In this document: positions 2-58,816 of the stretch, piece by piece
Numbering within the stretch: the stretch's first letter is position 1
Layout: each line of letters opens with the position of its first letter
Origin: a virus
Strand: one strand, 5' to 3'
Length of the DNA stretch: 64,000 bases
Virus genome (UHGV): UHGV-0375936
The notes under the pieces: model-generated
The model's database searches: none
What the model saw: only the letters and a program-made list of their open reading frames with translations
Told to the model about the DNA's origin: nothing
Translations under genes and position numbers: made by a program

Positions 2-2770
2 AAAACTGCAACCCGTGTAAATGCTCAGTATCTGGATAACATGCGATTGGCACAGTACGGATTTAGAGATCATGACGAGTGGTCTTCCGATGATGGCGCA
101 AAAGCACGTTATTTAGAAGACAACTTGAAACCGTATATCTCTTATACAGAGAATGGTCAAGCACAGTTGCGTGGTTTGTCCGGTGACGACGTGAAGAAAC
201 TGGCCGAAGGGTTTGGTACTAACGTAGAAGACAAAGGCGAAATGCTGGCGTTTAGTGCGTTTATGCTACAACGTTTTGTGCCGATCTATTTACGTTGGAT
301 TACGGCACTGAAATCCATGGATAATGATATCGCGTTAGCAGATGTCGGTAATCCTGCGAAAGTGTCGAAAGCGGACATGCTGAGTATCTTCAACAAAATG
401 AAGATGTCGAAAGATGCACCTGCTTTCCGTGCTTTAGAAGACCCCCGTAAGGTTAACCAAGGTTGGTTCTCTAAAGCGTGGGATTTCGTAACGTTTACCC
501 CGGCCGAGTTTTTGTCAGGCGAAGAAGTCGTTGAAGCGCAAGAACGCGTGCTTCGTTCGATTAACATGCGTCGTGATGAAAAACGTAAGGATGTAAATGC
601 TACAGGCGGTGTGGCCGAAGGACACAAAGTTGCTTCTGTGGCAGAATCGACCCAAGCGTTGGCTCAAGCGGATGCGGAACGCAACAAAGAAGTTGCGAAA
701 GTTGAAGGTTGGGAAGACGGCACCGAACAAGTTCAGGTTCAAGTCGACTGGAGAAGTTTACCTAAAGAAACCGATCTTCGTGATTTAGAATCTGTAAGGT
801 TGAAAGCTTATGGCGCGGTGAGCATTACTCAAACAACCCGTAACCTCTATACGCTCTTGGAACGTCAAGTGTTGCAAGACACCGATGTGAAAAGCTGTAC
901 GTATAAAGGCGACTGGAAACGTGCGATTGCGGTGATTGCGCCTGACGCCATTGGTGGGCCAAAAGAAGATCGGTACAAGAACTGGTTCTATAACCGCTTC
1001 TTGCCTGTCTTCATGACGTACATCGTTGGGGTAAAACGTTATGTTCCTGCCGCCGATCCGATGGACCTACGCGTTACGGGTGGGTTCTTGTATGAAATCG
1101 CACTGATGATGCGTGGTGCATACAACCTGAAAGGGGGTATTCGTCAGTCAGTGTGGGAGGTACCGTTTAACCCGTTAGGGGGAGACGCTAACACCGACGC
1201 TGGTTCAGTTGCAACAGAGTTAGAGAACCTGAAAGAACTGTCTAAGGAAGCTGACTTGGCAGTACGTAAAACGCTGCGTGCTACGCCTTCTGCGGGTTTC
1301 CGTGTGAACTGGCAGCGAAAAGATCGTGCGACCCAGATGTTCTTGACTGACGATGAGAAGGAGCAACCGACTCGACCACAGATGAACACCTCCTCCTCTT
1401 ATCGTGACCTATTGCAACCGGCAGCGAACGACGGTGGGAATTACGGCACACCAAACGATTTGGCCGGTGCTTACGGTAAGATGGGAGCTAAGAATTACGC
1501 CGCATTTACTACCGGTAACTTCGGCGTGAAACTTGGCGATATGCAAGACGGTGACTATAAAACGTTAGCGGCTAAGTATCCAATTTCAACGTTGGGTGAC
1601 GGATTGAAGCCTAACTTGAATGCGGTTGCAGCACTGATTACAGACGTAGCGAAGATGATGGGTGTTCCTCCAGCGTTAGCACTGGGAATGGCACAAGCAG
1701 AATCTGGGCTTAGATACGGTATCAAAGCTAAAGGAAGTTCTGCGGCTGGCTTGTTCCAGTTCATCAACGATACCTGGGGTGCGCAGATGAAAGCTTATGC
1801 GAGACGTTATGGTATCCCGCAAACCAACCAGTATGACCCGTGGGCGAATGCTCTGCTTGGCGTCCGTCATATTCGTGATAATATCGAGAAAGCCAGAAAG
1901 GATTTAGGTGGTATCGATCCTCCAGGTGCAGCTGTTTACCTCTACCACTTCTTAGGACAAGGTGGCGGTAAGAAATTCCTGCAAGAATGGAAGCGTGATC
2001 CGAACGGCCCATCGTCGCGTGGTGCGTCGGCCGATCAAATCGCGGCAAACAGCACAATTTTCTACAAGAATGGAAAATTGCGTAGTTTGGATGAAGTGCT
2101 CAACATCATGGGTGGTAAGATTGGTGCCGTAGGAACAAACGCGATCGCGGCTAACCAGGCATCGCTGAAAGACTTGACGACAGGCGTAACGCCAATGCCG
2201 TCTTCCCCGGCTATCGCTGCAGGTGCCGCTAACGATCCGTCTATCACAGGCCCGGCAGATAACCTGCCAGCCGCGAACGAGGCGAATCGCGACTCCGCTT
2301 TAGCAGACAAAGGCGCGATGGGTGCTGAAGATATTAAAGCTGCAACGGGTGGTGGTCCGGCTGTGCCGAGTCCCGGTGGCGATGTCACGCCGAGCGATGC
2401 GTCAGTTGTTGTAGAGACGGTGGGTCAAAATGCACGTGCTGATGGCCTGGCCGAAGAGGAAGTTGCCAAAGTAAAAGAAGGTGCTAGACAGCAGATGGAG
2501 AAATCGACCCGCCCTGCACCAACGGTAACTTCCGATGCTCAGACCGCTTCTACAGTGAACAGTGGTGATCCGATTAGCGTACAACAGCTGGCGGTTGCAA
2601 AAGAGTCTGCGGGCTATCTGAGAGAGATTGTAACAATTCTTCGTCAGCGACCACAGGCTATGCAAAACGGTCCGGCTAACCCGGCGTCAACCGCTCCGGG
2701 TTCGGCGTCACGTAACGTGTCAATAACTCAACCCGCGCCGAAACTCGACGTTAGTCGTAAATCAGCGTAA
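2..2770 (+). CDS. Large virion-associated protein with soluble lytic transglycosylase (SLT-like) domain; 5' end probably outside window
   Basis: Frame is open from window edge (no in-frame stop before first ATG at 41); SLT motif AESGLRYG...AAGLFQF around aa 555-585; Ala/Pro/Gly/Ser-rich C-terminal tail; hairpin terminator follows. Confidence 0.7.
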   Translation, partial: KTATRVNAQYLDNMRLAQYGFRDHDEWSSDDGAKARYLEDNLKPYISYTENGQAQLRGLSGDDVKKLAEGFGTNVEDKGEMLAFSAFMLQRFVPIYLRWITALKSMDNDIALADVGNPAKVSKADMLSIFNKMKMSKDAPAFRALEDPRKVNQGWFSKAWDFVTFTPAEFLSGEEVVEAQERVLRSINMRRDEKRKDVNATGGVAEGHKVASVAESTQALAQADAERNKEVAKVEGWEDGTEQVQVQVDWRSLPKETDLRDLESVRLKAYGAVSITQTTRNLYTLLERQVLQDTDVKSCTYKGDWKRAIAVIAPDAIGGPKEDRYKNWFYNRFLPVFMTYIVGVKRYVPAADPMDLRVTGGFLYEIALMMRGAYNLKGGIRQSVWEVPFNPLGGDANTDAGSVATELENLKELSKEADLAVRKTLRATPSAGFRVNWQRKDRATQMFLTDDEKEQPTRPQMNTSSSYRDLLQPAANDGGNYGTPNDLAGAYGKMGAKNYAAFTTGNFGVKLGDMQDGDYKTLAAKYPISTLGDGLKPNLNAVAALITDVAKMMGVPPALALGMAQAESGLRYGIKAKGSSAAGLFQFINDTWGAQMKAYARRYGIPQTNQYDPWANALLGVRHIRDNIEKARKDLGGIDPPGAAVYLYHFLGQGGGKKFLQEWKRDPNGPSSRGASADQIAANSTIFYKNGKLRSLDEVLNIMGGKIGAVGTNAIAANQASLKDLTTGVTPMPSSPAIAAGAANDPSITGPADNLPAANEANRDSALADKGAMGAEDIKAATGGGPAVPSPGGDVTPSDASVVVETVGQNARADGLAEEEVAKVKEGARQQMEKSTRPAPTVTSDAQTASTVNSGDPISVQQLAVAKESAGYLREIVTILRQRPQAMQNGPANPASTAPGSASRNVSITQPAPKLDVSRKSA

Positions 2771-7700: not shown

Positions 7701-8784
7701 CATTACGTTCAGATGCGGTCGTTAGTCGCATCCCGCGCCATTACGCGCAGCTGCATGTCACCATGCAGATCGGACTATATCACCCTCTACATTGTAGAGG
7801 CTCTCCCGTTTCGAGAACACTTGTTCCCTACGAACAGTCACGTTCTAGTCTCTGGGCATTTATCTGACCATTTCCATGTGGCATATTTTGGATTTTTACT
7901 GTTTACCCTCCAGAGGACAACGGTTGTGTGTTTACCTAGCTGTCTTCCGGCCTCTGTAATACTTTCGTATTCAATGCCGTCAATGTTTACTGGTCTGCTG
8001 TTTGTGGGCTTGGTACCCATCCTGCGTTCGGCAAGTTTACGTTTAGTCTCGTCAGAATGGTGTTTACCGTAAAAAGGATTTTTCTCTCCAACACGCTGCG
8101 CAGCAATGATGGATAGCTTTCTACGTGTTTCCTCACTGCGTTTTATCCCGAGACACGGTGAGGTATTATGTTTATACCATTCTGCTAACTTTTCACTCAT
8201 TTTCTTCCTGGATTCGGGAGTATGTGTGCGACCATACATGCCGTTTGCCTTGCCGAATTTACCGTAAATTTTTTGACGTTCTTCCTTTGACATTTTTGAG
8301 AATCTTCGATAGAGTGAGTTAGTCATTTTTTGAATAATCTCTGCCCTTCTTGGATTCCTGCTAATGCAATCGTAACCGCATTCGATGTTAACAAATCCTT
8401 TTTCACTACTAATCATTTTCTGTTCGAGCTCGCGCGCCTCCGCTTTAGATGTGCAAGGCACGATAGTTGGGTTACCGTCGTATCTATACCCTTCATTCCA
8501 GATTTTCTGGAGTGTAAAGTTATGATGCGTACCTTTCTCTAACAGATTTAAATGAATTTTGATACGCTCGTTGAAATCACGAGTCTCTCCGACGTAGCGA
8601 AAACGTTTTTCACCTTTTACGAAAGTAATAATGTAAACAACTGCCATAGGACCTCCTTTGTTTCATATTAAAAGGCTGTCCTAGAAATGGTTCGAATTTA
8701 GCAACGGGTTCTCTCCGTAGAGTTCTTCCCGTTTTAAGGAGAGTTTTTCGACTAAGGTCACCCTTAGAAGGCGCAGTTATGTTT
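7701..8784 (-). mobile_element. Group I self-splicing intron (1084 nt) interrupting thymidylate synthase, carrying a homing endonuclease ORF
   Basis: Lies between TS halves; exon 1 ends in U (CGU), intron ends in G (..GUAAUG); group I-like elements GAUAUAGUCC, GAUCUGCA and GACUA in 3' part; 5' part resembles the T4 td intron as recalled from memory. Confidence 0.7.
7838..8647 (-). CDS. Intron-encoded GIY-YIG homing endonuclease (I-TevI-like)
   Basis: N-terminal VVYIITF...RFRYVGET (GIY...YIG) with downstream R, E residues; repeated G..H..E.RRK.S linker motifs; own SD AAGGAGG before ATG. Confidence 0.85.
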   Translation of the reverse strand: MAVVYIITFVKGEKRFRYVGETRDFNERIKIHLNLLEKGTHHNFTLQKIWNEGYRYDGNPTIVPCTSKAEARELEQKMISSEKGFVNIECGYDCISRNPRRAEIIQKMTNSLYRRFSKMSKEERQKIYGKFGKANGMYGRTHTPESRKKMSEKLAEWYKHNTSPCLGIKRSEETRRKLSIIAAQRVGEKNPFYGKHHSDETKRKLAERRMGTKPTNSRPVNIDGIEYESITEAGRQLGKHTTVVLWRVNSKNPKYATWKWSDKCPETRT

Positions 8785-9528
8785 ACGCATCAGAAAGAAA
8801 CAAGAAAGCTTACGGCGTGGAATGCCCTCACGATCTAAAGTTTCATGAAGTCGTTCTTCATCATCAATATCTTCGTGATTAATAAGTGGCGCGTTCGCAA
8901 ATTTTTCCGGTTCATTTGCTTCGTACCAATCCAGTCGCTCAAGCAGTGTCATTTCTGTAGTGTAGAACTGGAAGTAGTTGTGACACGGATTAAGTGCCAT
9001 GTCGTCCAGGTCACTTACGTTCCAGGCACTAACAATAATGCGACGAGAATCAGGGTCTTCGCGAAGTTGCTGGATGACCTTACTGATCTGGTCGTGAGAT
9101 TTGCGATAAATAACGATACTTTCTTCAGGATTGTCTCTTGCAATAGTCCCAACGTAGTGATAGCCCCGTTTTCTCAACACGTCTTTACTACGCTCGTCCC
9201 AAAGATAAACCATTTTGGTATCCATCCAATCCCGCCACTGGTGTCCGTAGACAGGACCTAAATCCCCTTCTTCATTCGCCCACTCGTTCCAGATTTTTAC
9301 CCCATTCTCTTGCAGGTACTTCACGTTAGTGTCACCATTTAAGAACCACAGCAGTTCGTGAATGATACTTTTCAGGTGAACCTTCTTCGTAGTAACTAAT
9401 GGGAAACCTTCTTTCAGGTCAAAACGTAGTTGACGACCAAATACAGATAGTGTCCCTACACCTGTGCGGTCTTTCTTGACAACACCGTTATCCAGAATGT
9501 CTTTCATTAACGCTAAATACTGTTTCAT
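8785..9528 (-). CDS. thyA: Thymidylate synthase, exon 1
   Basis: [15 protein letters not shown]...DRTGVGT...HELLWFL...[10 protein letters not shown]...PCHNYFQFY catalytic Cys motif; ends KLSCFFLMR then runs into intron stop. Confidence 0.85.
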
Positions 9529-20691: not shown

Positions 20692-20702
20692 AAAAGTAAA
20701 GT

Positions 20703-20745
20703 TACCCCTAGACCGCATGGTCTAGGGGTAAACTATTTATTTCCC
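20703..20745. terminator. Bidirectional rho-independent terminator
   Basis: TACCCCTAGACC-gcat-GGTCTAGGGGTA hairpin with A-run upstream and T-rich run downstream. Confidence 0.6.
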
Positions 20746-21636
20746 ACGATAAAATCCAGAAATGTAACTCGGCGCTATCCATCGCCATTCGCGCCAGCGC
20801 ATTTCTGACATTTTACCACACCATACACGCTTCCAATGCGCACGACGGATATGTGCGGCGCAATAAATCGCCAAACAAACCTCGTGTCCTTCCTTGCGTT
20901 GCTGCTCTATATCTTCCCATTGTACCGGACTTACATCTAAAACGACCGCTTCACTACGTGGGCGAATTTCTGTATCAGGAACATAACGAATGGACCTTCC
21001 GCGAAATTCTTTTTTCTCGCGCTCAGTTCGTTTAATTCGTGACGAAAGATATAGCCCGATGTAGACCGCGTCGAGTAGTCGCTGATTCTCCTTAACCGAA
21101 GTAAGGAGCGGCTTTAACTCCACGAAATCATCTTTACTTTTATCGATCGTGTAAATCTCAAACTCCATGTATACCGACTCGTCATGTTCTTCGCATGACA
21201 TCACAAAGAGAACTTCTTCACCTTCGTAAAGACGTCTTCCGATAAATAACGTGATTGGGGTTTCGTCGAGATTTACTGTAACCGAGAAAGTAAATGAAGG
21301 GATGGTTTCTATCCAGAAGTACGGGATATTTTTTAGTCTCTCAGTTTTTGCTAAGAGCGCCATCAGTTCTTCATCCGAGATGATTTCAACAGCAGCGTAT
21401 TGCCATCCTAGTCCCAGGGACTGCTTAATCAGTCTGGGGATCTGTTCGGTAACGCCATACTCACGATAGGTCGGATCTTTAACTGGCATAAACGTTACGG
21501 GTATTTGACGTTTATGCTCGTTAATGAACCGAATAAAGCGACACTGATCTAATCCGTGAATTGTTTGGTGTGCCTTTTCTATTTGTTCACTCATGCGTCT
21601 TAGCGCTTTCCCGTAAAGTCTATTATTCGTTGTCAT
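20737..21636 (-). CDS. Hypothetical protein, paralog A of a pair with conserved Arg/Trp-rich C-terminus (300 aa)
   Basis: Track ORF trimmed to ATG at 21636 preceded by TTTAGGAGTATTAAA; C-terminus AAHIRRAHWKRVWCG...WIAPSYISGFY matches neighbour. Confidence 0.55.
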   Translation of the reverse strand: MTTNNRLYGKALRRMSEQIEKAHQTIHGLDQCRFIRFINEHKRQIPVTFMPVKDPTYREYGVTEQIPRLIKQSLGLGWQYAAVEIISDEELMALLAKTERLKNIPYFWIETIPSFTFSVTVNLDETPITLFIGRRLYEGEEVLFVMSCEEHDESVYMEFEIYTIDKSKDDFVELKPLLTSVKENQRLLDAVYIGLYLSSRIKRTEREKKEFRGRSIRYVPDTEIRPRSEAVVLDVSPVQWEDIEQQRKEGHEVCLAIYCAAHIRRAHWKRVWCGKMSEMRWREWRWIAPSYISGFYRGK

Positions 21637-21661
21637 TTTAATACTCCTAAACACTTTTAGC

Positions 21662-22588
21662 TTAATTGTGGGGTACGTAGCCACGGACAAATGTAGGTGG
21701 AATCCAACAAAGTTTTCTCTTTCTTTCACCATTTCTAGGGCCGACCCAATATCTGCGCCAGTGTGCGCGACGGATGTGGGCAGCCTTAGCATGTTTGATA
21801 CCTTGCATGGTTTTCAAGTCAGTGTTAAACCCTTTTAGATAATTCACTTGTCCTGGCGTGATATCTATCTTAACATCGCGTTCACGAGGTTTAACGTCGT
21901 AACTAATACTACCGTTCTTTTTGATTTCCTTGAACTTAATATCATTAAAAGACCCCCTGTAATTAGGCGGGATTAGCGTACACAGAAAAATCATCGAAGT
22001 AGCGGCTTTGGCCAGAGATAACCATAGCATCTTTTCTTGTTCGGTCCGTACGCCAGTTGTATAATCGATTTCAACAAGCCCGTTTCCAACACTACATATC
22101 TCTAACGAGCAGGTGGCGATTGTGGTAACGCCTTCTGTTAACCCGTAATCAGTATTTGTAGCGATTATAATAAACCTTCTTTTCCCATTTTTTCGATAGC
22201 CGAGAAAGAAAGTCTCATCCTCTTTACCTACGTCGATTGCTACAGTCCATGTGGGTATAAAGTCCAACCATTCTTCAGGGAATTTACTGGGCATCTCAGT
22301 CTCGAAAACAAGTTCTCTAAGTGCTTGGTTGGATATTAAGGAAGCACCACCGTATAGCCATCCAATTGCCAATGTTTGAGCGTGAAGGGAACGGGGTTCT
22401 TTGAGACCTAACTCGGCGTCGTAGGGTATAAAGGCATTGGTTAAATGGTTACGATTCTTTTTTATCCATTTCGAGACAGGATTTTCCTTTATTCGGTTTT
22501 CTTCCATGACATTTTCAAGATGCTGAGACCCCATTTGTCTAAGGCAGTCTTTAATACCTTTTACTTTTTTACTTTTGTACAAATACAT
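21662..22588 (-). CDS. Hypothetical protein, paralog B (308 aa)
   Basis: C-terminus AAHIRRAHWRRYWVG...WIPPTFVRGYV; internal GW and IPxWT motifs shared with paralog A. Confidence 0.55.
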   Translation of the reverse strand: MYLYKSKKVKGIKDCLRQMGSQHLENVMEENRIKENPVSKWIKKNRNHLTNAFIPYDAELGLKEPRSLHAQTLAIGWLYGGASLISNQALRELVFETEMPSKFPEEWLDFIPTWTVAIDVGKEDETFFLGYRKNGKRRFIIIATNTDYGLTEGVTTIATCSLEICSVGNGLVEIDYTTGVRTEQEKMLWLSLAKAATSMIFLCTLIPPNYRGSFNDIKFKEIKKNGSISYDVKPRERDVKIDITPGQVNYLKGFNTDLKTMQGIKHAKAAHIRRAHWRRYWVGPRNGERKRKLCWIPPTFVRGYVPHN

Positions 22589-22599
22589 GGTTTATTCTC

Positions 22600-22643
22600 C
22601 TAAAATGGTTAAAAATAAAGTAACCCTAGCCGAAGCTAGGGTG
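22600..22643 (-). terminator. Rho-independent terminator (minus strand)
   Basis: ACCCTAGC-cgaa-GCTAGGGT hairpin then T-rich run on minus strand. Confidence 0.55.
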
Positions 22644-22647
22644 TCTA

Positions 22648-23136
22648 TTAGTCGATTTTGACGTAATCAGGATAATTAGCTTTTAGCCACTCCCATAGTT
22701 GCAGAGCAAGTTGGTTTTCGTTACGCTTGATGATTTCTACGATTTCGTTCAAGAGAGAGTCTTCAACCCAAATCCGGGTATAAAATTTTTCCCATTCCGG
22801 TTCTGTATAAGGGACTAGCGGAGTAGGGAATCGACCCATGTGGTACGCATCAGAAACTTTCTTTAAGAACTCGTTGCGACCATGGCGTAGACGTTGCCGA
22901 ACGTCTGTTTCTGTCATGCGCTTGCTTGATGGATCGAAGAAGTCAAGTATGATAAATATGTATCCAAATAAGCTCTGAGAAGAAAAGTAGGACGCGGCGT
23001 AGTCCGCCATCCAGGGAGTGTCTACAACCAACGGAGTCAACTTTTCTTCAATTTCTTTTCGTACACGTGTTTCGTTATTGAGAAATTCATGTACGAAATC
23101 GGTGTCACGAATATCGAAGTTATGATTTAAGTTCAT
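22648..23136 (-). CDS. Hypothetical protein (162 aa)
   Basis: ORF, minus strand. Confidence 0.55.
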   Translation of the reverse strand: MNLNHNFDIRDTDFVHEFLNNETRVRKEIEEKLTPLVVDTPWMADYAASYFSSQSLFGYIFIILDFFDPSSKRMTETDVRQRLRHGRNEFLKKVSDAYHMGRFPTPLVPYTEPEWEKFYTRIWVEDSLLNEIVEIIKRNENQLALQLWEWLKANYPDYVKID

Positions 23137-33173: not shown

Positions 33174-33683
33174 TTAGAAGAACGGCTGATTTGGAATGAC
33201 AGCGTACTCTAAAATGAACATATGTTCCGGGGCGTCTTCTTTACGCCAGACTTTGTGTGTCGACACAAGTTTTTCCAGAATCGTTAAGAAACTACGTTGG
33301 CAGTATGTGTTTTCACCAAGCAGTAGATTTTGAAGTTCTACAGTAGCGTCCATATACGCCTGTTTAAAGACTAAACTACGGTTATACTGCCCGGTAAAAT
33401 TCCAAAGCAAGACCTTCCCTTCTTCGGTTTCTTTTACCGTTGGCCGTAAACCACAAATCCACAGTAAGGCAAGGTTGACGTTCCAGTCAAACTCTAAACC
33501 TTCTTCTTCGTCAACACCGAATGCTGTGGGTAAAGCATCGTAAAATTCGTGTTTCTCTGCGAATTCTTCATCCGACTTAATCTCGTCTTCGATACTGCTT
33601 CGGACAATACTGTAAACGTCTTTCGCGGTCAATTGTGCGGCTTTTGTAATGCCTTTATACCAATCGGTTACTACGATGCTCAA
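33174..33683 (-). CDS. Hypothetical protein (169 aa)
   Basis: ORF, 4-nt overlap with upstream SLT gene. Confidence 0.55.
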   Translation of the reverse strand: MSIVVTDWYKGITKAAQLTAKDVYSIVRSSIEDEIKSDEEFAEKHEFYDALPTAFGVDEEEGLEFDWNVNLALLWICGLRPTVKETEEGKVLLWNFTGQYNRSLVFKQAYMDATVELQNLLLGENTYCQRSFLTILEKLVSTHKVWRKEDAPEHMFILEYAVIPNQPFF

Positions 33684-34405
33684 AGGGTAACTCCTCTATT
33701 GATTGGAAAACTCGTGTTTATCGTATCCCAAATTCTACTAACTTCCGCCAGTTGAATCTGACGTGGTGTTTTCTTCGCAAACGCAAGCTGACGTGGGGCC
33801 GAGCCCACAACAACAGGCACATCGATTTTCGCGCTATAGAACGAGGCGTCTTTCATAAAGCCTGCCATTTCTCGTTGTGCTGCTCGAGATTTGCTTTTGA
33901 TTCGCGTGTGAGCGCCACTTTCACCCCAGTGGTAAGCTAACGCAACTTCAGCCATGGTGGGCTTGCGTTTGAGTCGTTTGGTTAACCCCTTCTCAAGATG
34001 TTTAACATACGCGGTAGCCAGCAAAACAGCATTACGCGGATTATACAAATCGGCGTTCTGACTAAGACCTAATTCTTTTCCATAAAGCTTTAGCAGATTA
34101 CGCTTGGTACTTGGAAGCATTTGTACCAGGCTGTGTGCTCGTGAGCTTTTGTTGTAAGCCTTGGGATCAAAACGCGATTCACGATAAATCAGCGTAATCA
34201 TCAGCTTGGGATCAACGCCCTGCTTTCGTGAGATTTCCACAATTAACGGGCTGACTTTTTCGAACCGATGTTGGATTTGTGCAAACTCTCGCTGATGCTT
34301 AGAATGTGGCGTTGACGTTGACGCCTGTGCGTTAAACGCGAAAAGTGTTACCAGTAAAAGAAAGAAGATACGAAACATTTTGTTTCTCCAGTTGGATTTA
34401 TACAT
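33680..34405 (-). CDS. Secreted lytic transglycosylase (SLT domain); candidate endolysin
   Basis: Signal-like MFRIFFLLLVTLFAFNAQA; SLT motif YRESRFDPKAY...SLVQMLPST...AYHWGE. Confidence 0.7.
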   Translation of the reverse strand: MYKSNWRNKMFRIFFLLLVTLFAFNAQASTSTPHSKHQREFAQIQHRFEKVSPLIVEISRKQGVDPKLMITLIYRESRFDPKAYNKSSRAHSLVQMLPSTKRNLLKLYGKELGLSQNADLYNPRNAVLLATAYVKHLEKGLTKRLKRKPTMAEVALAYHWGESGAHTRIKSKSRAAQREMAGFMKDASFYSAKIDVPVVVGSAPRQLAFAKKTPRQIQLAEVSRIWDTINTSFPINRGVTL

Positions 34406-50298: not shown

Positions 50299-53200
50299 AT
50301 GGCTGTCGTCCTAGACCCACACTTCAAAAAACCGGGGAATAAAATAACCGGTGAAGCGGTCGCCGTCATTGGTACGAAATACCGAATGTTGGTACCTGCC
50401 CACGCCCCTTTTTTCACCACATCCCTGGTGGTCAAGAGCGGCGGCAAAACACTGACCTTAGGCGACGATTACATTATTACACACCCGTACGAGACCGGTA
50501 TGTTGCGCACAGCCTATCTCATTCACGGGATGATTTGGATTGTTAATGACAAATACAAATCGAATTTTACGGTAGATTACCACGCCGTTGGTTGTGGTCA
50601 GGCTACCCAACAACAGATTACCGCAGAACGCGAACTCAATAAAGATAAATACCCGACTACGTGTCAGTGGGACACCGTCATCGGGGACGTTTACTTTCCG
50701 CCGGTCGATATCCAGTTCGATTGGGAGAATTGGAAAGGTGAACTGGAATTAATGCAGGCTATTGCTGGATTAGGCGATTCGTTAGGGGAAGTCGTGAGTC
50801 GACTTAACCCCATCGCACGCAATACCCTGGATTTAGAATACCGTGCTAACAGCAAGGTTATCACTTCCGAGCAGTATGCCGCATACGACAATAAAGGTGG
50901 GTTCACCTACAACACTACCCGTCATCGTTATAGCTTGAGTTATAAAACTGCAACCTTTAACGACTACGCCCTGTCAGTGAAACATAGAATTCCTGCTATT
51001 CTGCCAGACATGACGAAATTGAATCCAAACGAACAGATCGATTGGATGCTCTGTTATGCTAACGGCGGGGCAAGTATTCTACGGCTGCAGCTAAAACAGC
51101 GCAAAATCTCACTGGTCTTAACGGTCGCTATTGGTAGCGGTTCAACAAACTACGATTATACGTTAATCAACGGTTTAACTGACGATGAGTTAAAAAACGA
51201 TATCGATTTTAGTGTAACCCGTCAACCCGGAAACGGTGTTTACGTCATCGTAGTAAAAACAAATAAACAGACCATGGATTACACATTCAACGTCGATACG
51301 CCGCCTGATGAGTTCTCGGCAGGGTATTCGAAAACGGATGTTGCTAAATGGTTGAAGTCTAAAACGAACATTAACCTGAACTGGTATGCTGGACAAAAAG
51401 ATTATGTTCAAATTCGTTCTTTACCCGGCGCACCAGAACCTGACGTCGACAACGATGTTTACCAGTTAATAGTTAAATACCATCAATTAGTTGAGCAGCT
51501 GTATCGTAACGCGCCTGCACACGAACACGTTACACGTAAGGACAACCCGCACACCGATACGTGGGGCCCGATCCGTGCGTTACAGCTGAATGGTATTGCG
51601 TCGGATGCCGCGTTAGCTTACGGGAAAACGAAACAACAGTTAACGGATTATGTTAATGCTAAGTACCCAACACAAGCAACGTTAACCGCACAGAAAAAAC
51701 TGCTTCGTGAATCGGCGAACAAGAACGTTAACGGCACGATTACCACACTTCCGGGTTTTACTTCGTTCACGACGGAAGTTGATCCGGTTTCGATGTCGAA
51801 ATACGTGAGTCCTAGTTTTAGCGAAAGCTACGTTAGTAATGGTCACAGGTATCACGGTGCGCTTCGTTACACAGGAACGAAAAGCGGTTTCAGTGCTAAC
51901 TTTAATGCGGTGCCTGCCAACCTGCAAGATATTGACTTTATTGTTACCGGACGTAAAACAGCGTCTGGTAACGAAGCTGTCGGTGCAGTTGGTTTGCGTT
52001 TCTACGAAAACCCCGGTAGTAACTCCGGTAAGTTTGTAGAGATTAACGGACAAATCTGGGCTGGTACCCTTACTATCAGTCTGACATTGAACGGTTACGG
52101 GAGTCCGTTACCGTCGGTGCGTTATATTTCTCAAGCCCCTAATCCGGCAATACCGGATGGAGATTTTACGCTACGTTTTCAACTGAAGCGTACAGGGAAC
52201 GTGTTTGACGTCGTTATTACCGTAAACGGTAAAACGTATAGCGCCCGGATTAACTTCAATAACATGGACGCTGCGTTAGAAGCATTAGAGAATCAGCACC
52301 ACTTTAAATCGCTGATCAATAATGTTGCCGATGGCGTCAAAATTAGTTCGCAAAACAAAGGTAACACGGTTACCATTAAGAAAGCACCGGATGTCGTTGA
52401 CGGAACTCGTTTAGGTGCCCAGTTTGTCGTTGATCCGAAATCCATTAAGTTTATTGGCCAAGGTTCAACTGATGTTAACGTAGGAAATAACCCCGTAACG
52501 TTCCAAGCAGGTACTAACCAGCTTATGTTGTATCCTGACGATCGTGGGTTACAGTGGCGTGGTAAAAAACTCTTAGACCCTACCACCGTGGCCCCGTATC
52601 TGCCAGGTAATACCGCAGGTGGTACCGGTTTATTCTACGCAAGCTCGACAACAACAGTTACGATCACTGGTAGCGGGATAAAAGCTTCGCCGTTCGTAGC
52701 GACCTTTATTCTCCCTACCGCGACCGATACAACGGCTCTGGCAGCTTGGCAGTTGACCGATGAGTTCGGTACTGCTGAAAACCTTGCAGCAACGCCAGCA
52801 CTGATTGAAAAACTGGATGCGGAGTTCACCGGTAAGTTAGTTGCAGTTAAATCGTACATTAACGACATGCAGCTTACCAGCTCGGTTACTATCGATAAGA
52901 TTACCTTCGGTTTAGGTAATGTTGCGAATACGCCCGATGTCAATTTACCGATTTCTACAGCACAGCGTGCGGAGTTAGATAAATACTCGCCTAAGGTTCA
53001 CCAACACCCGTTTACCGCTTTTGGTACCGGGAACGCAACCACAGCGAAACGCGGTCTGATTAAATTTGGTCTGGATGTGGATGATGCGACTTTAGCACTC
53101 GATGGGAGTGTGGTAATGGCGCAGACTTCCCAGATTGAAAAATTGGAGAGTGCTGTCGGCGGCGTTGACTCGGAGGCACGTCTTGATATCATACGTTTTG

Positions 53201-54621
53201 GTGAGTCTGGTAACGACTTAATAGACGTTACGGTCAAAGACAAAATTCTGGTCACGCTTCCAGCTTCAACGTATTTTATCGGTGGCGAAACGTACACCGT
53301 ACCGTTGATGACGATTAACGTTAGTGAACGTTTTCCGAAATTGAATACAGAGATCTACGCGGGGATTTTTGTTGATATTGTTGATAACAAAGCGAAGTAT
53401 ATTATCCACGACAGCTACAGTCAGGCCGAAACGGATACCATGACGCGTGTGGGGTTGATCGGCGTCAACGACCTTTCTGAGGTGTTCGTTACAGAGATGC
53501 GTAATGTCACACGGTTGGGTGATTTCCGTGAACTGAAAGATCATAAAGCCGATGACAACGCACACATTCAGCGCTCCGCATCACGTGCAGCGCTTGGGTT
53601 AGCTAACTTAACCGTAGGTGCGCCTTGCTGGGCTTCTGGACTCCAGGCAGTAGTACGCGGTGAAGCAGATTGGCGTTATGTTGCCGGTGGACAGTATAAA
53701 GCTTTAGACGGGGTGAAATACGACCAGCTCGCATCCAAGTGGATTTTTGACGCGAAAGGGGTAAGCGATAACCTACACGGGTTTATCCACAACATGTTCC
53801 CAGCTTTTAAGAACGCAGGAATGCGGGTAAGTTGGGAAACAGAAAGCAACGCAAAAACCGGCACGGTGTTAGAAACTGTTTTAGGTTGTTGGAAAAACAC
53901 CGACGGCGAGTTTATGCGGTTGTCGTTACTTATCACTCGTGGTTATCGTTTAACTGACAGCAACGGTGAGTATTGTTACGCAGGGTTCGGTTTGAACTTC
54001 GGTAGCGGGAAATCGGTAGTGTTAGGTTTCACACCAACGAAGCGTGTTACGCCTGCACCGTGGAATACGTTACAACCTGACGTAACGTTTACCCACACCC
54101 GTGCTGCAAATAACGCATTAACGTTTAACGCAACACTGACCTTAGCGGGCACTACGTATACCGTCGTGGTGTTTTTATCTGCGACAGATAAATACGTAAG
54201 CTGCACGGCAGCAGGGGGAGCTACGCAGAAAATCCCTCTAACTGACCGTTTAACAGGGTTCAACCTCGCACCTATCGTTAACGATCCGTATACCCCTATT
54301 TACTACGGTTTAGGGGGACTTTATGAGGATGAGGTTCGTGCCAACATCCGTTCTACGGCAGACAGCGCAACCGCGAATAAAGTCTACGGTACGTTGTTAG
54401 ACTATATTAGCAACTATTCCTCATTAAATCGTGTGCGCGTTATGGAATTGAGCGGTGTCAGTTCAGACCCCGAAACGCTTAATGCGTTAGTGGCAACTGA
54501 ATTTAATAACAACCTGGCGGATTACGCCGCGTTACCGATACCTTCTTATCTTAACAAGGAGCGCGTAATGTCGTTTATCGACACCAACAATAAAGTGCAG
54601 GCGGTAATCATTCGCGATTAA
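50299..54621 (+). CDS. Giant tail fiber protein A (1440 aa)
   Basis: Tail-fiber motif FGLGNVANTPDVNLPISTAQRAELD...HQH; ATTAKRGLIKF repeat; N-terminal module VPAHAPFF..LVV...LGDDYI shared with next two ORFs. Confidence 0.75.
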   Translation: MAVVLDPHFKKPGNKITGEAVAVIGTKYRMLVPAHAPFFTTSLVVKSGGKTLTLGDDYIITHPYETGMLRTAYLIHGMIWIVNDKYKSNFTVDYHAVGCGQATQQQITAERELNKDKYPTTCQWDTVIGDVYFPPVDIQFDWENWKGELELMQAIAGLGDSLGEVVSRLNPIARNTLDLEYRANSKVITSEQYAAYDNKGGFTYNTTRHRYSLSYKTATFNDYALSVKHRIPAILPDMTKLNPNEQIDWMLCYANGGASILRLQLKQRKISLVLTVAIGSGSTNYDYTLINGLTDDELKNDIDFSVTRQPGNGVYVIVVKTNKQTMDYTFNVDTPPDEFSAGYSKTDVAKWLKSKTNINLNWYAGQKDYVQIRSLPGAPEPDVDNDVYQLIVKYHQLVEQLYRNAPAHEHVTRKDNPHTDTWGPIRALQLNGIASDAALAYGKTKQQLTDYVNAKYPTQATLTAQKKLLRESANKNVNGTITTLPGFTSFTTEVDPVSMSKYVSPSFSESYVSNGHRYHGALRYTGTKSGFSANFNAVPANLQDIDFIVTGRKTASGNEAVGAVGLRFYENPGSNSGKFVEINGQIWAGTLTISLTLNGYGSPLPSVRYISQAPNPAIPDGDFTLRFQLKRTGNVFDVVITVNGKTYSARINFNNMDAALEALENQHHFKSLINNVADGVKISSQNKGNTVTIKKAPDVVDGTRLGAQFVVDPKSIKFIGQGSTDVNVGNNPVTFQAGTNQLMLYPDDRGLQWRGKKLLDPTTVAPYLPGNTAGGTGLFYASSTTTVTITGSGIKASPFVATFILPTATDTTALAAWQLTDEFGTAENLAATPALIEKLDAEFTGKLVAVKSYINDMQLTSSVTIDKITFGLGNVANTPDVNLPISTAQRAELDKYSPKVHQHPFTAFGTGNATTAKRGLIKFGLDVDDATLALDGSVVMAQTSQIEKLESAVGGVDSEARLDIIRFGESGNDLIDVTVKDKILVTLPASTYFIGGETYTVPLMTINVSERFPKLNTEIYAGIFVDIVDNKAKYIIHDSYSQAETDTMTRVGLIGVNDLSEVFVTEMRNVTRLGDFRELKDHKADDNAHIQRSASRAALGLANLTVGAPCWASGLQAVVRGEADWRYVAGGQYKALDGVKYDQLASKWIFDAKGVSDNLHGFIHNMFPAFKNAGMRVSWETESNAKTGTVLETVLGCWKNTDGEFMRLSLLITRGYRLTDSNGEYCYAGFGLNFGSGKSVVLGFTPTKRVTPAPWNTLQPDVTFTHTRAANNALTFNATLTLAGTTYTVVVFLSATDKYVSCTAAGGATQKIPLTDRLTGFNLAPIVNDPYTPIYYGLGGLYEDEVRANIRSTADSATANKVYGTLLDYISNYSSLNRVRVMELSGVSSDPETLNALVATEFNNNLADYAALPIPSYLNKERVMSFIDTNNKVQAVIIRD

Positions 54622-54631
54622 GGAGAATTTT

Positions 54632-57600
54632 TTGATGAAAGCGTATCCTTACGATCCTCGGGGGACGAAAGCCGAGAATCACTTCTTAGAGGAGCGTATC
54701 ATCGGGTCAGAGAACAACAACGATCGGGTGGTGATTTTAGACCACCGCCCGTTCTTTGAAGATTTGGTCGTCAGACAACCAGGTTCAACCACCCCACTGA
54801 GTCGTGGGGTGGACTACGAACTGCAATATCAGCTGACGGAACTGGATGACTCGGTAGCAGCCAACGTGTATTGTGGGGTACACCTTATCAACCCATCCAT
54901 CAAAGGCATCGTAACCTTTGAAGGACAAATGCTCGGCGGTACGTTCTACGACCCGTTTGTTGATATTCTCGATGAACTGGTGAAATATTTGAATAACCCT
55001 GTCAGTGCTGACTGGTTGTTATTAGACGGTAGACCATCGTTATATCCAGCGACGCCAGCAGCAACGTCCTGGGCGGATTTGCTGAACAAAAAATATTTAG
55101 CGTCGGCAGTTCACGATATTGAATTGAAAACCGACGACGCTAACCAGTTAATTAAAGACAAATTAGCTGAAGTTAAAGCGTTAGTGACTGCGTTGGGTAA
55201 AGAAATCGAAGCATTTAACTACCCGGCACATATCGCGGAAACCAACCCACACAAAACCACATCCGCGCAGATTAACGCGCATCCTGTTAACTTGAAAACA
55301 CCCGACACCTTTATGGCGTACGGGTTAAAGTTGAAAGCGCTGACGGATGAGCTGAAAGCGTTTCGTTTACCCCAGTCAGTTATCGACACGTATATCTCTC
55401 ACTGGATTTCTTCGGAAGTACGTGGCGTGTTTAACTGTACGGTGTCAGGAAACCGCGCACAGTTCCGTTCGAAAAACGGTGAGTCAGAAATCATTTTTGC
55501 CAACGATGGTTTTACGTTAAAATCCAACGGTTCTGTGGTATTAGCGGTAGGGCATCTGGAAGGTACGGGTGCAGGACGTTACATTAATTGGCGTGCCGGT
55601 AAAAACACATTACGCATCGAGTCAACAGGCGATGCTTTAGGGATGAACAAACTCACCCTGAACGGTAACCCGTTACTGACTACCACGGCGTTGATGGAAT
55701 ACCAACAAGATCCAGATGCGGGTTCTGGTGGCGGTGGCGACCCTGATGACTCGAAGGTGTACATTGAAGGCCGTAATGGGATTAGCTTTACCGGTAAAGG
55801 TTCTCGCGCCGACCCTATCGTGGGGACTATCGACCCAACAAAAGCGACAACCGCCGAAAAAGGCGTCGCTAAACTTAAAACAGGTAAAGGTACAGAAACG
55901 ACTGGGGTTGCTGCAACTCCGGCTTCGTTAGCACCATACTCGACTGACCTATCGGGGTATGTGGCTAAAACGACCATGATTAACGGTAAGCCGATGAACG
56001 ACGGCTCCAGGACAATCACGAAAGCTGATCTGGGGTTAGGGCAAGCGAATAACACCGCAGACGTTGACAAACCGTTGTCTACCGAGTTAAATGCGGCGCT
56101 TAGCGGCTTAGCGGATGCAGGCCACCACCACGATTGGTCGGAACTCGGCATTTATAAAGCCTCGCAATCCGTTTACGGTATCGGTCGTTACGCAACTAAC
56201 CAGAACGGTTTGGTTGAAAACCGTGCGGTAGTACCGAACATCTTAAAAGAACTTTCGGCGCGTTTAGATGTGGTTGCTGCGGCGATTGCAAACGCGAAAG
56301 AAGGATCGGTAACGGATTTCGCTGCGGTAAAAGGCGCAGAGTGGCGCTTTAATAGTCAGGGTACGGCAATCTCCGTTCAAGATTTGAAGTATTTCTATTT
56401 GCTGAACGGTACGAAAGCTGATAGCACCGTTACAGGTTCGATTGACCTGCAAACTACGCCGATGTTTAACTGGTTCTCACCGAACAACCAAATTGAGACG
56501 ACTTGGCCTACGGGGAAAGTGAGCGCTGGTAAGGGTATTAACTGGACAGGTATTGAAGAACCACCACTAATGGGTTTCCAATCTGTTCCGGTAGGTAAAA
56601 CTGCCTCACAGATGGGTGACCAGTCAGTTGTTACTGTGTTGGCCAAAACGCGGGTAAGGGCACACCAGTCGAAGCTTTGGGTTTATGCCGCAGGGGGTGG
56701 TCCGGTTACAGTTTACATTAACGGTATCCAGGCAGCCACAGGCCAGTCTCCACTCGTTGCAGTGCATGAAACATCAGCAGACGTTGAAAACTACACCGTA
56801 GCGGTTAAAGCTGAGTGTAGCGACACAGCTAAATCCGCAGCGGTGCAATTCGAAATTTACGACGGTGACTACCCCGTTTATTTCAGTGGCCCTGAAACGC
56901 GCGTAGAGCTTCTCCAAGAGTTTGTTACAACACACGTAGGGATTCGTCATTATCTGTACGTTAACATGCTCACAAGCTCTCTGTATTCGCGTACTGAGCC
57001 AATTCAGAGTGTTGCAGTTGATCCTGAGCGCGGTTATATCGGCTACGTTGATATTGTTGCCGGTGAGTCTTACGCGAATAAGAGCGTGAGTTTTGAAACC
57101 ACGTTTGATTTCGGGAAAAGTGCCGAGGTTAGTGAACACATTGACACACGCAAAGCACACGGACTCAGCTCTGTAGACTGGACGTTAACGGATAACCCAC
57201 GTTTCCCGTTATTAAATCGTGCGATTGCAGAGCCGAGAACGTGTATTTTTAGAAAAACGTTAACGGCCGGTACTGGTGACGTTTTTCATCTCGTGAGTCG
57301 TGGTCTTTATACTTACGCACATAACCAAAACGTGAAGTCCAGTCTTCAATACGTTGTGATACCTGAAGGTGCTACACCGTATTGCTGGTTTACGCCGTTT
57401 AACCCGAAAGAAAACAACGCACCGACGTTCGAAGGTTCGTTTGTGTTCGACGTTGACGACGTCGGTGGAACACAAGCGCTCACGGCTGCACCGGATTTGG
57501 TGCTGTGTACGTCAACACAAGGTAGCAGCGTTAAACGTCGTTACGTACGTATTGACCTAACTGCCAAAGCGTGTAAGCTGGGGATTGGTTCTCGTTCAGA

Positions 57601-58816
57601 TTCTGCGGTTACGGATATCCCGTTAGTGATGGAGGAATCTGGGGAAACGGCGGTGGCGGCAACGTTTAAGGATGTGTTGTTCAACGGCGAGGAAACCAAC
57701 GCAGCGATACTCGACTTGATAGGCTGGGGTCCAAATAAAGACAAAATCTCTGCAAACCACGCGCCACGAGGTATGATTCGTTATCGTTACAACGTAAACA
57801 CTCGGGTATTACGTTTAGCACTATCGTTCTCACAGTTCGGAACGACAACAGTTAAGCACCGCCAGTTGGAAATTGAATTTCCGTTTGATTTGGTGGATTA
57901 CTTCACCGGTGACGGTGTAGGATTGTCGTTTAAAGAACTGTCTGCGAAATGCCGTGTAACGATTAGCCACGCACTGATTGATCCGGTTACGACTAAAATC
58001 GATATTGATAAGTATCATTACCTACGCTCGTTATTTGAGTCGTATTTGGATGCATCTGTTGGTTATTTGGCTGATACCAAAGACGCCGACTTTAACCAGT
58101 CTGTGATTGACCCTGCGACTTATGAGATTAATCAGAAATACCGCGTTACCGAAAGCATTGCGCTGCCGACCGGTCAGGGAAGTGTTGCTGTTTCCCATGA
58201 CGGTCAGTTACCTGCACAGTTCTTTGACCGTAAGCTGTCTCGCGGTGCTTTGATGGCCAAGAAAGGTGAACTTCATACTTCCTGGAACAATGAGTGGAGT
58301 ACATCCAAAGCTGCCGCAAACCGGTATCGACATAAACTCATTCTGCGCTTTGCACAAGGTGCTGATAAACAACAGTACCGTGTTGCAAAAGTGACAGGAA
58401 CGGTGAAGTGTAACTGGCCGGGCAAGGTGATTATCGGTGATGCTGGGAAGGACGCGTATGTATCAGCTATCGATAGCGTGCCGTTTGCGCTTTCGACCAG
58501 CGCGGACACAGGTAAAGCAGTTACCCTTACGCCAAAGGATCTACGTGTAGGGCAGGACATTTATATTGTCTTAGAACCACCAGGCAATAATCCAGAAGGC
58601 TACGAGCTTAACTTTACCTGTTCGTTAGATGTCACTGACGAGAAAGGTGTCCGTCAAGACCAGCTCAATGCGCAGAGTTTCGAACTCCGTAGCGGCGAAA
58701 GTCAGTTCTTAATGGAGAAACGCAATCCGTACCACATCACGAGTAAAGCGTGGAAGTGGATTCTGGCTGTACTGAAACGAGAACTTAACGGGAAGCAGTT
58801 AGGGGATCGTACTTAG
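54632..58816 (+). CDS. Giant tail fiber protein B (1394 aa)
   Basis: LGLGQANNTADVDKPLSTELNAAL...HHHDW; KATTAEKGVAKLKTG repeat; Gly-rich GSGGGGDPDD; AAGGAG RBS. Confidence 0.75.
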   Translation: MMKAYPYDPRGTKAENHFLEERIIGSENNNDRVVILDHRPFFEDLVVRQPGSTTPLSRGVDYELQYQLTELDDSVAANVYCGVHLINPSIKGIVTFEGQMLGGTFYDPFVDILDELVKYLNNPVSADWLLLDGRPSLYPATPAATSWADLLNKKYLASAVHDIELKTDDANQLIKDKLAEVKALVTALGKEIEAFNYPAHIAETNPHKTTSAQINAHPVNLKTPDTFMAYGLKLKALTDELKAFRLPQSVIDTYISHWISSEVRGVFNCTVSGNRAQFRSKNGESEIIFANDGFTLKSNGSVVLAVGHLEGTGAGRYINWRAGKNTLRIESTGDALGMNKLTLNGNPLLTTTALMEYQQDPDAGSGGGGDPDDSKVYIEGRNGISFTGKGSRADPIVGTIDPTKATTAEKGVAKLKTGKGTETTGVAATPASLAPYSTDLSGYVAKTTMINGKPMNDGSRTITKADLGLGQANNTADVDKPLSTELNAALSGLADAGHHHDWSELGIYKASQSVYGIGRYATNQNGLVENRAVVPNILKELSARLDVVAAAIANAKEGSVTDFAAVKGAEWRFNSQGTAISVQDLKYFYLLNGTKADSTVTGSIDLQTTPMFNWFSPNNQIETTWPTGKVSAGKGINWTGIEEPPLMGFQSVPVGKTASQMGDQSVVTVLAKTRVRAHQSKLWVYAAGGGPVTVYINGIQAATGQSPLVAVHETSADVENYTVAVKAECSDTAKSAAVQFEIYDGDYPVYFSGPETRVELLQEFVTTHVGIRHYLYVNMLTSSLYSRTEPIQSVAVDPERGYIGYVDIVAGESYANKSVSFETTFDFGKSAEVSEHIDTRKAHGLSSVDWTLTDNPRFPLLNRAIAEPRTCIFRKTLTAGTGDVFHLVSRGLYTYAHNQNVKSSLQYVVIPEGATPYCWFTPFNPKENNAPTFEGSFVFDVDDVGGTQALTAAPDLVLCTSTQGSSVKRRYVRIDLTAKACKLGIGSRSDSAVTDIPLVMEESGETAVAATFKDVLFNGEETNAAILDLIGWGPNKDKISANHAPRGMIRYRYNVNTRVLRLALSFSQFGTTTVKHRQLEIEFPFDLVDYFTGDGVGLSFKELSAKCRVTISHALIDPVTTKIDIDKYHYLRSLFESYLDASVGYLADTKDADFNQSVIDPATYEINQKYRVTESIALPTGQGSVAVSHDGQLPAQFFDRKLSRGALMAKKGELHTSWNNEWSTSKAAANRYRHKLILRFAQGADKQQYRVAKVTGTVKCNWPGKVIIGDAGKDAYVSAIDSVPFALSTSADTGKAVTLTPKDLRVGQDIYIVLEPPGNNPEGYELNFTCSLDVTDEKGVRQDQLNAQSFELRSGESQFLMEKRNPYHITSKAWKWILAVLKRELNGKQLGDRT

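Follow-up and report, generated by a model that had tools for sequence, protein, structure and literature searches.

Tandem genes assigned to the AcrVA2/FinQ family at an accessory locus in the genome of an SPN3US/Asesino-like jumbo phage

Introduction

AcrVA2, an anti-CRISPR protein encoded by a Moraxella bovoculi prophage, is so far the sole bacterial protein found to recognise a nascent polypeptide and bring about the destruction of its mRNA. Recoding of the target is without effect, and amino acid changes in the target or removal of its start codon abolish silencing (Marino et al., 10.1101/2022.11.29.518452). AcrVA2 has about 1,800 homologs, most of them without a known target; FinQ and others are carried by plasmids and “megaphages,” mostly where Cas12a is absent (Marino et al., 10.1101/2022.11.29.518452). 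The presence of the AcrVA2/FinQ family in huge phages has already been recorded (Marino et al., 10.1101/2022.11.29.518452; Al-Shayeb et al., PMC7162821). Here, we describe two adjacent minus-strand genes, A and B, in the virus genome UHGV-0375936, of which a stretch of 64,000 nucleotides (hereafter the window) was analysed. Both can be placed in the AcrVA2/FinQ family. The locus offers a tractable case: jumbo phages of Salmonella, E. coli, and Erwinia that are in culture are among the relatives of this phage, which carries two diverged copies with an intact predicted effector motif.

Results and discussion

Assignment of genes A and B to the AcrVA2/FinQ family

By profile comparison, A and B belong to the AcrVA2/FinQ family (Pfam PF26125). 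An alignment restricted to jumbo-phage sequences (A1) matched an alignment of AcrVA2, FinQ, and distant members (A4) in hhalign with 99.7% probability (E = 3.4e-26, 261 columns); as a guard against circularity, the two alignments have no sequence in common. An exhaustive HMMER search, with a profile made from A, B, and closely related proteins, retrieved 613 representative proteins at E ≤ 1e-3, mostly of 300–380 amino acids (aa), and a 56-sequence profile taken from these matches (A3) aligned with the AcrVA2 chain 7ci1_A over residues 9–318 of 323 (E = 3.7e-41). A profile without any jumbo-clade sequence selected exactly A (98.5 bits) and B (74.6 bits) from the six-frame translation of the window. 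The precomputed Pfam label “PF26125:AcrVA2-like” is attached to close homologs of both genes, including both members of the tandem pairs of relatives, and both genes fall in phrog_6160, a group with no assigned function (E = 7e-19 for B). In phmmer searches of PDB, A retrieved AcrVA2 (7CI1/7CI2; E = 1.2e-4), the tails aligning HIRRAHWRRYWVG to HIRRGHWHGYWQG. The same search with B alone returned nothing significant, so the membership of B rests on the profiles. The AcrVA2 sequence used here (residues 9–318, chain numbering +1 relative to the paper) was rebuilt from HMMER alignment output; it matches annotated finQ genes on approximately 500 enterobacterial plasmids.

Scans of A and B with Pfam-A, NCBIfam, and PADLOC gave nothing usable, the Pfam copy used evidently being without PF26125. 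Matches to AAA_19 (E = 0.17–0.28) and, for B only, to Csx19 (E = 0.009) were weak and partial and were rejected. A megablast search of the locus against phage records gave no match, and a word-indexed homolog search found only five close relatives, even with a profile.

An earlier, sequence-only reading of this DNA could not assign the two proteins to a named family, and took assignment to a well-characterised one as a refutation. The profile matches above place them in one that is named and partly characterised, AcrVA2/FinQ. A and B represent neither a new family nor a new mechanism, since the family already has its own Pfam entry as well as a solved crystal structure and a preprint on its mechanism. 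What is new is the placement of PHROG 6160 and the “hypothetical” jumbo-phage orthologs in the AcrVA2/FinQ family, which brings a function-related annotation to genes such as gp235 of phage Asesino. Also new are the copy-number polymorphism (0, 1, or 2 copies), the fixed diverged pair, and the reassortment of its alleles.

The structure prediction that had been proposed as a check gives A the fold of the AcrVA2 crystal structure 7CI1. The AlphaFold2 (AF2) model of A, built from a 56-sequence alignment and no templates, reached a pLDDT of 85.5 and a pTM of 0.85; a shallow alignment of seven sequences yielded a pLDDT of 43 and was unusable. AcrVA2 was the sole Foldseek match of the model below E = 1e-3 (E = 2e-10), and A is accordingly modelled with the AcrVA2 fold. 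Searching a viral structure library showed the fold again in jumbo phages of Erwinia and Dickeya, as well as in some siphoviruses, always in proteins that are uncharacterised.

A and B resemble AcrVA2 in size (approximately 300–320 aa) and in being borne by a mobile element, and the profile alignment with it is full-length. They share its W79 and the invariant pattern H-I-R-R-[AG]-H-W…W-x-G…W, which includes H286, R288, and H291. Pairwise identity is 13–16%, however, and AcrVA2 resides in a temperate Moraxella prophage next to acrVA1, whereas A and B form a tandem diverged pair in a lytic jumbo phage. FinQ, from IncI/F-like enterobacterial plasmids, also aligns with A and B and has all invariant tail residues in common with them. 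It shares their broad host range (Enterobacterales) and provides a precedent for a non-CRISPR target. It differs in its identity to A and B (16–19%), in being plasmid-borne and single-copy, in a longer and unrelated N-terminal region, and in having S at the position of AcrVA2 D89; for the phenotype known for it, inhibition of F transfer, a lytic phage offers no obvious equivalent. FinQ belongs to conjugative plasmids, whereas A and B lie among UvsX, RNase H, SbcC, and virion genes, in synteny with Asesino and SPN3US.

C-terminal motif and functional residues

The Arg/Trp-rich tail motif described from the sequence is present, as quoted, in both proteins (Table 1), and this conserved tail, rich also in His, is their hallmark. 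The internal segments said to be shared hold in part: GW is common to both and carries the counterpart of AcrVA2 W79 (W77 in A, W78 in B), while IPxWT occurs only in A (IPTWT), the corresponding segment of B being IPSFT. In the alignment, AcrVA2 H286, R288, and H291 correspond to H271, R273, and H276 of A and to H262, R264, and H267 of B, and these positions are invariant in all 58 of the 58 aligned family members. In AcrVA2, the substitutions H286A, R288A, and H291A abolish mRNA downregulation without abolishing target-protein binding (Marino et al., 10.1101/2022.11.29.518452). Because the tail residues are needed for mRNA downregulation and not for binding, the tail can be read as the effector element, and on the alignment this element is intact in both A and B. 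W79A and D89A weaken AcrVA2 activity (Marino et al., 10.1101/2022.11.29.518452). The position of D89 is occupied by D88 in B and N87 in A; of the 58 sequences, 39 have D in this column and 6 have N.

The residues through which AcrVA2 contacts the Cas12a 620–636 peptide (E98, D129, and D195, in the 7CI2 complex) fall in gapped, variable columns, and neither A nor B has equivalent acidic residues, the one exception being E185 of A, which aligns with D195. Even AcrVA2 can do without these contacts (Marino et al., 10.1101/2022.11.29.518452). Their lack of conservation lowers any anti-Cas12a claim and leaves family membership unaffected. A reading of the tail as a HEPN-like Rx4-6H motif was rejected: the R-x-x-H spacing is wrong, and the region is predicted to be beta-strand rather than helical.

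An accessory slot with variable copy number

The window belongs to a jumbo phage of the SPN3US/Asesino-like group. Among its products are UvsX (81% aa identity to that of SPN3US), RNase H, SbcC, MazG, thymidylate synthase, and large virion proteins, and the gene order near the pair matches Asesino gp226–gp244. Asesino has been shown experimentally to be a nucleus-forming chimallivirus (PMC11724907), and the window phage is probably nucleus-forming as well.

The pair occupies a slot between a gp213-like gene and a convergent gp214-like gene, and the number of copies in this slot varies. SPN3US has none, with a 62-bp spacer in their place (L008, 5269–5332). A single copy is found in EC001 (L009, 3818–4741), which is classified as Seoulvirus SPN3US, the same assigned species as SPN3US, and in Asesino, as gp235 (L001, 5875–6801); the other cultured relatives have one match common to both the A and B queries. 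The tandem pair is present in the window and in all nine of its nine close metagenomic relatives (contigs up to approximately 225 kb). Checking whether related phages carry one or two copies, as had been proposed, thus gave zero in SPN3US, one in Asesino and EC001, and two in the window and its nine relatives. The locus is an accessory slot that is polymorphic even within one assigned species. No third copy was found by profile scan of the six-frame translation of the 64-kb window. On a Moraxella osloensis plasmid with two family members, the two are not adjacent.

The single-copy orthologs of PHROG 6160, all annotated as hypothetical, comprise gp235 of Erwinia phage Asesino, ACEC001_2110 of E. 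coli phage EC001, and genes of Salmonella phages SaP7 and JN03, Erwinia phages ChrisDB and the SNUABM phages, and Dickeya phage AD1. They lie in the same slot as A and B, upstream of a convergent 251-aa gene, a 99-aa gene, and UvsX, and are of similar length; they differ in being present once rather than twice as in the window lineage, and their identity to A and B is 19–30%. Identity to Asesino gp235 is approximately 29% for A and 19% for B. A neighbour-joining tree without bootstrap places both paralog groups together with the single-copy orthologs in one jumbo-phage clade, in which B is the most divergent.

Divergence, selection, and allele exchange

The sequence-only reading took A and B for duplicates, and this is borne out along their whole length by BLASTP (E = 5e-21, 25% identity across approximately 300 residues); as the match covers some 300 residues, the likeness extends beyond the tail. 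With 22–25% identity between the copies, the duplication is ancient rather than recent. Outside the W-helix and the tail, identity falls to approximately 10–15%.

Close comparisons place both copies under purifying selection, with an estimated omega (dN/dS) of approximately 0.085 for A (window versus relative L005) and 0.08 for B (L005 versus relative L002). Both also evolve faster than the flanking genes: at a synonymous divergence (dS) of approximately 1.1, nonsynonymous divergence (dN) is 0.20 for A and 0.30 for B, compared with 0.025–0.05 for UvsX and two small neighbours. The most variable segment is the central beta-sheet (A residues 121–180), where orthologs are 38–41% identical, and the least variable is the tail (71–100%). 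Residues 121–180 of A fall between the alignment positions of the AcrVA2 contact residues D129 and D195, and the central sheet would fit a specificity surface.

Among ten genomes (the window and L002, L003, L005, L006, L011–L014, and L016), there are two A alleles (approximately 69% aa identity) and two B alleles (approximately 63%); of the four combinations that could arise, three occur. When the sequences are compared in sliding windows, identity switches sharply at approximately 21880–21730, within the conserved 3′ end of A. Upstream of the switch, the window and L005 are 91–98% identical and L002 is divergent; downstream, L005 and L002 are 97–100% identical, and it is the window that diverges. 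Synonymous divergence follows the same course. The recombination breakpoint between allele types falls in the stretch that encodes the conserved A motif (21680–21784). Given the three combinations and the breakpoint, A and B behave as exchangeable cassettes.

The gene directly upstream of A (22648–23136, minus strand, 162 aa) is the most variable of the neighbourhood. Its products share 38–55% aa identity among relatives whose UvsX proteins are 97–100% identical, and dN is 0.4–0.6. The ends are conserved (…HEFLN… and …LWEWLKANYP.YV..D), and a PHROG search gave no match. It may be another arms-race gene.

Proposed mode of action and its alternatives

We favour, with a probability of roughly 55%, a tandem AcrVA2/FinQ pair in an accessory slot in which each member silences a target of its own in the manner of AcrVA2. 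In each paralog, the variable N-terminal and central regions would bind one specific protein, most likely while it is still a nascent chain on a cytoplasmic ribosome; the conserved C-terminal HxRxxHW motif would then trigger translation-dependent loss of the target's mRNA. The targets would come from host defence systems or from rival mobile elements. With only approximately 10–15% identity outside the W-helix and tail, A and B most likely have two different targets. Cas12a is not expected in Enterobacterales, and the closest cultured relatives of the window phage infect Salmonella, E. coli, and Erwinia; since the hosts of these relatives are Enterobacterales, the target of A and B almost certainly differs from that of AcrVA2, and Cas12a is unlikely as a target of either protein.

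Several points weigh against this proposal. A and B have so little identity to AcrVA2 that its activity may not extend to them, the D89 position is occupied by N in A, and the unconserved peptide-contact residues point to no target. The fold evidence covers A and not B. The AcrVA2 mechanism itself comes from one preprint and heterologous expression (10.1101/2022.11.29.518452), and the probable nucleus-forming nature of the window phage is read from its relatives.

A narrower version, to which we give tentative credence well short of even odds, sees A and B as nascent-chain-triggered silencers of two new, non-Cas12a targets, deployed in the cytoplasm by a probably nucleus-forming phage to halt the production of host immune proteins, or of rival-element proteins, that the nucleus cannot keep out. 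If this is true, specificity would reside in the hypervariable central sheet, the reassortment of alleles would record an ongoing arms race, and the locus would amount to a natural library of re-targeted “polypeptide-specific gene silencers.” There are natural variants with 0, 1, or 2 copies, and each copy comes in at least two allele types whose differences lie mainly in one surface region, so that target discovery and specificity mapping can be tested directly.

Within the same family, the basic, Trp-rich tail might instead bind or cleave RNA or DNA directly, by recognising nucleic acid sequence or structure; to the sequence-only reading, the tail had looked like a nucleic-acid-binding element. 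The tail is indeed rich in Arg, His, and Trp and invariant across the family, and the behaviour of the AcrVA2 tail mutants, which lose the mRNA effect and keep protein binding, is what would be expected of a nuclease or RNA-contact site. FinQ, moreover, is reported to lower F tra mRNA and is classically viewed as a transcription-level inhibitor. However, the AcrVA2 effect follows the amino acids and start codon of the target and is unaffected by recoding, and Pfam and NCBIfam scans found no nucleic-acid-binding domains in A or B. On balance, we regard direct action on nucleic acids as rather unlikely.

The role of the pair could also lie in mobile-element competition rather than anti-defence, that is, in silencing co-infecting phages, prophages, or plasmids (superinfection or fertility inhibition), which is compatible with the same molecular mechanism as AcrVA2-style silencing. 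FinQ, found on approximately 500 enterobacterial conjugative plasmids, is a family member, and most homologs occur where Cas12a is absent, for which mobile-element conflict has been proposed (Marino et al., 10.1101/2022.11.29.518452). SPN3US lacks the gene and phages assigned to its species carry it, so the basic lytic cycle does not require it. The window itself gives no sign that the target is a rival element, however, and the fast evolution and allele shuffling suit a host-defence target equally well; competition in place of anti-defence seems rather unlikely to us.

That one copy, most likely B, is a redundant or decaying duplicate without a function of its own is largely refuted: although B is less similar than A to Asesino gp235 (19% versus 29% identity) and fails to find AcrVA2 by itself in phmmer, it has an intact open reading frame (ORF) with a strong Shine-Dalgarno sequence, keeps all invariant family residues as well as D88 (N in A), shows an omega of approximately 0.08 between the L005 and L002 alleles, and is retained in nine of nine close relatives across alleles of approximately 63% identity.

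Layout of the gene pair and the start codon of B

The longest ORF of B (20737–21792, minus strand) encodes 351 aa and overlaps the 3′ end of A by 131 nt (21662–21792). The sequence-only reading had moved its start to an internal ATG, at 21636, and three lines of evidence support this: the spacing of the AGGAG sequence, the gene calls in relatives, which start the B homologs P0004 and P0005 (both with a precomputed PF26125 match) at the corresponding Met and give them lengths of 299 and 294 aa, and the family profile, which covers B only downstream of the Met at 21636. The alternative frame over the 3′ end of A is open for approximately 40–50 codons in the window and in relatives, beginning with ATG in the window and GTG in L002 and L005. 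We reject both a 5′ extension of B and an overlapping gene at 21637–21792, as the start codon varies, the profile gives no coverage, and the segment overlies the DNA of the conserved A tail. The frame is judged to stay open as a side-effect of the strong conservation of the DNA encoding this tail.

The layout suggests that A and B form a two-gene unit bracketed by two hairpins, both of which are consensus-scan matches only (Table 1). The downstream hairpin lies where B and the convergent 251-aa gene meet, between their stops, and its palindromic match is kept in relatives. A scan of the locus for sigma-70 promoters found nothing above shuffled expectation; phages of the SPN3US/Asesino-like group are thought to use their own RNA polymerases.

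Table 1. Features of the A/B locus, by position in the window.
Feature	Position	Strand	Description
Gene A	21662–22588	−	308 aa; upstream member of the pair; assigned to the AcrVA2/FinQ family
Gene B	20737–21636	−	299 aa from the corrected start; more divergent paralog assigned to the AcrVA2/FinQ family
Rejected 5′ extension of the B ORF	21637–21792	−	Alternative frame over the conserved 3′ end of A
Predicted C-terminal effector motif of A	21680–21784	−	Residues 269–303; AAHIRRAHWRRYWVG...WIPPTFVRG, followed by Y
Predicted C-terminal effector motif of B	20755–20859	−	Residues 260–294; AAHIRRAHWKRVWCG...WIAPSYISG, followed by F
Shine-Dalgarno sequence of A	22597–22601	−	AGGAG; 8 nt upstream of the ATG at 22588; read from the sequence
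Shine-Dalgarno sequence of B	21644–21648	−	AGGAG; 7-nt spacer to the ATG at 21636; read from the sequence
Terminator-like hairpin	22623–22642	−	8-bp stem with a T-rich tail after it; separates A from the upstream 162-aa gene; 5′ boundary of the unit
Bidirectional terminator-like hairpin	20702–20731	both	Perfect 13-bp stem with T-rich runs on either side; 3′ boundary of the unit

Other features of the window

Elsewhere in the window, a homing-endonuclease-like ORF (phrog_314, E = 8e-23) adjoins the thymidylate synthase gene (7838–8647 and 8764–9528, both on the minus strand) and may have arisen by insertion of a mobile endonuclease. Two separate ORFs approximately 31 kb apart (41–2770, plus strand; 33680–34405, minus strand) both match a transglycosylase domain (phrog_4067) and a tail-fiber family (phrog_3201). 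Two virion proteins of 1440 and 1394 aa (50299–54621 and 54632–58816, plus strand) have PHROGs 7557, 8078, 7449, and 2163 in common and constitute a second adjacent paralog pair.

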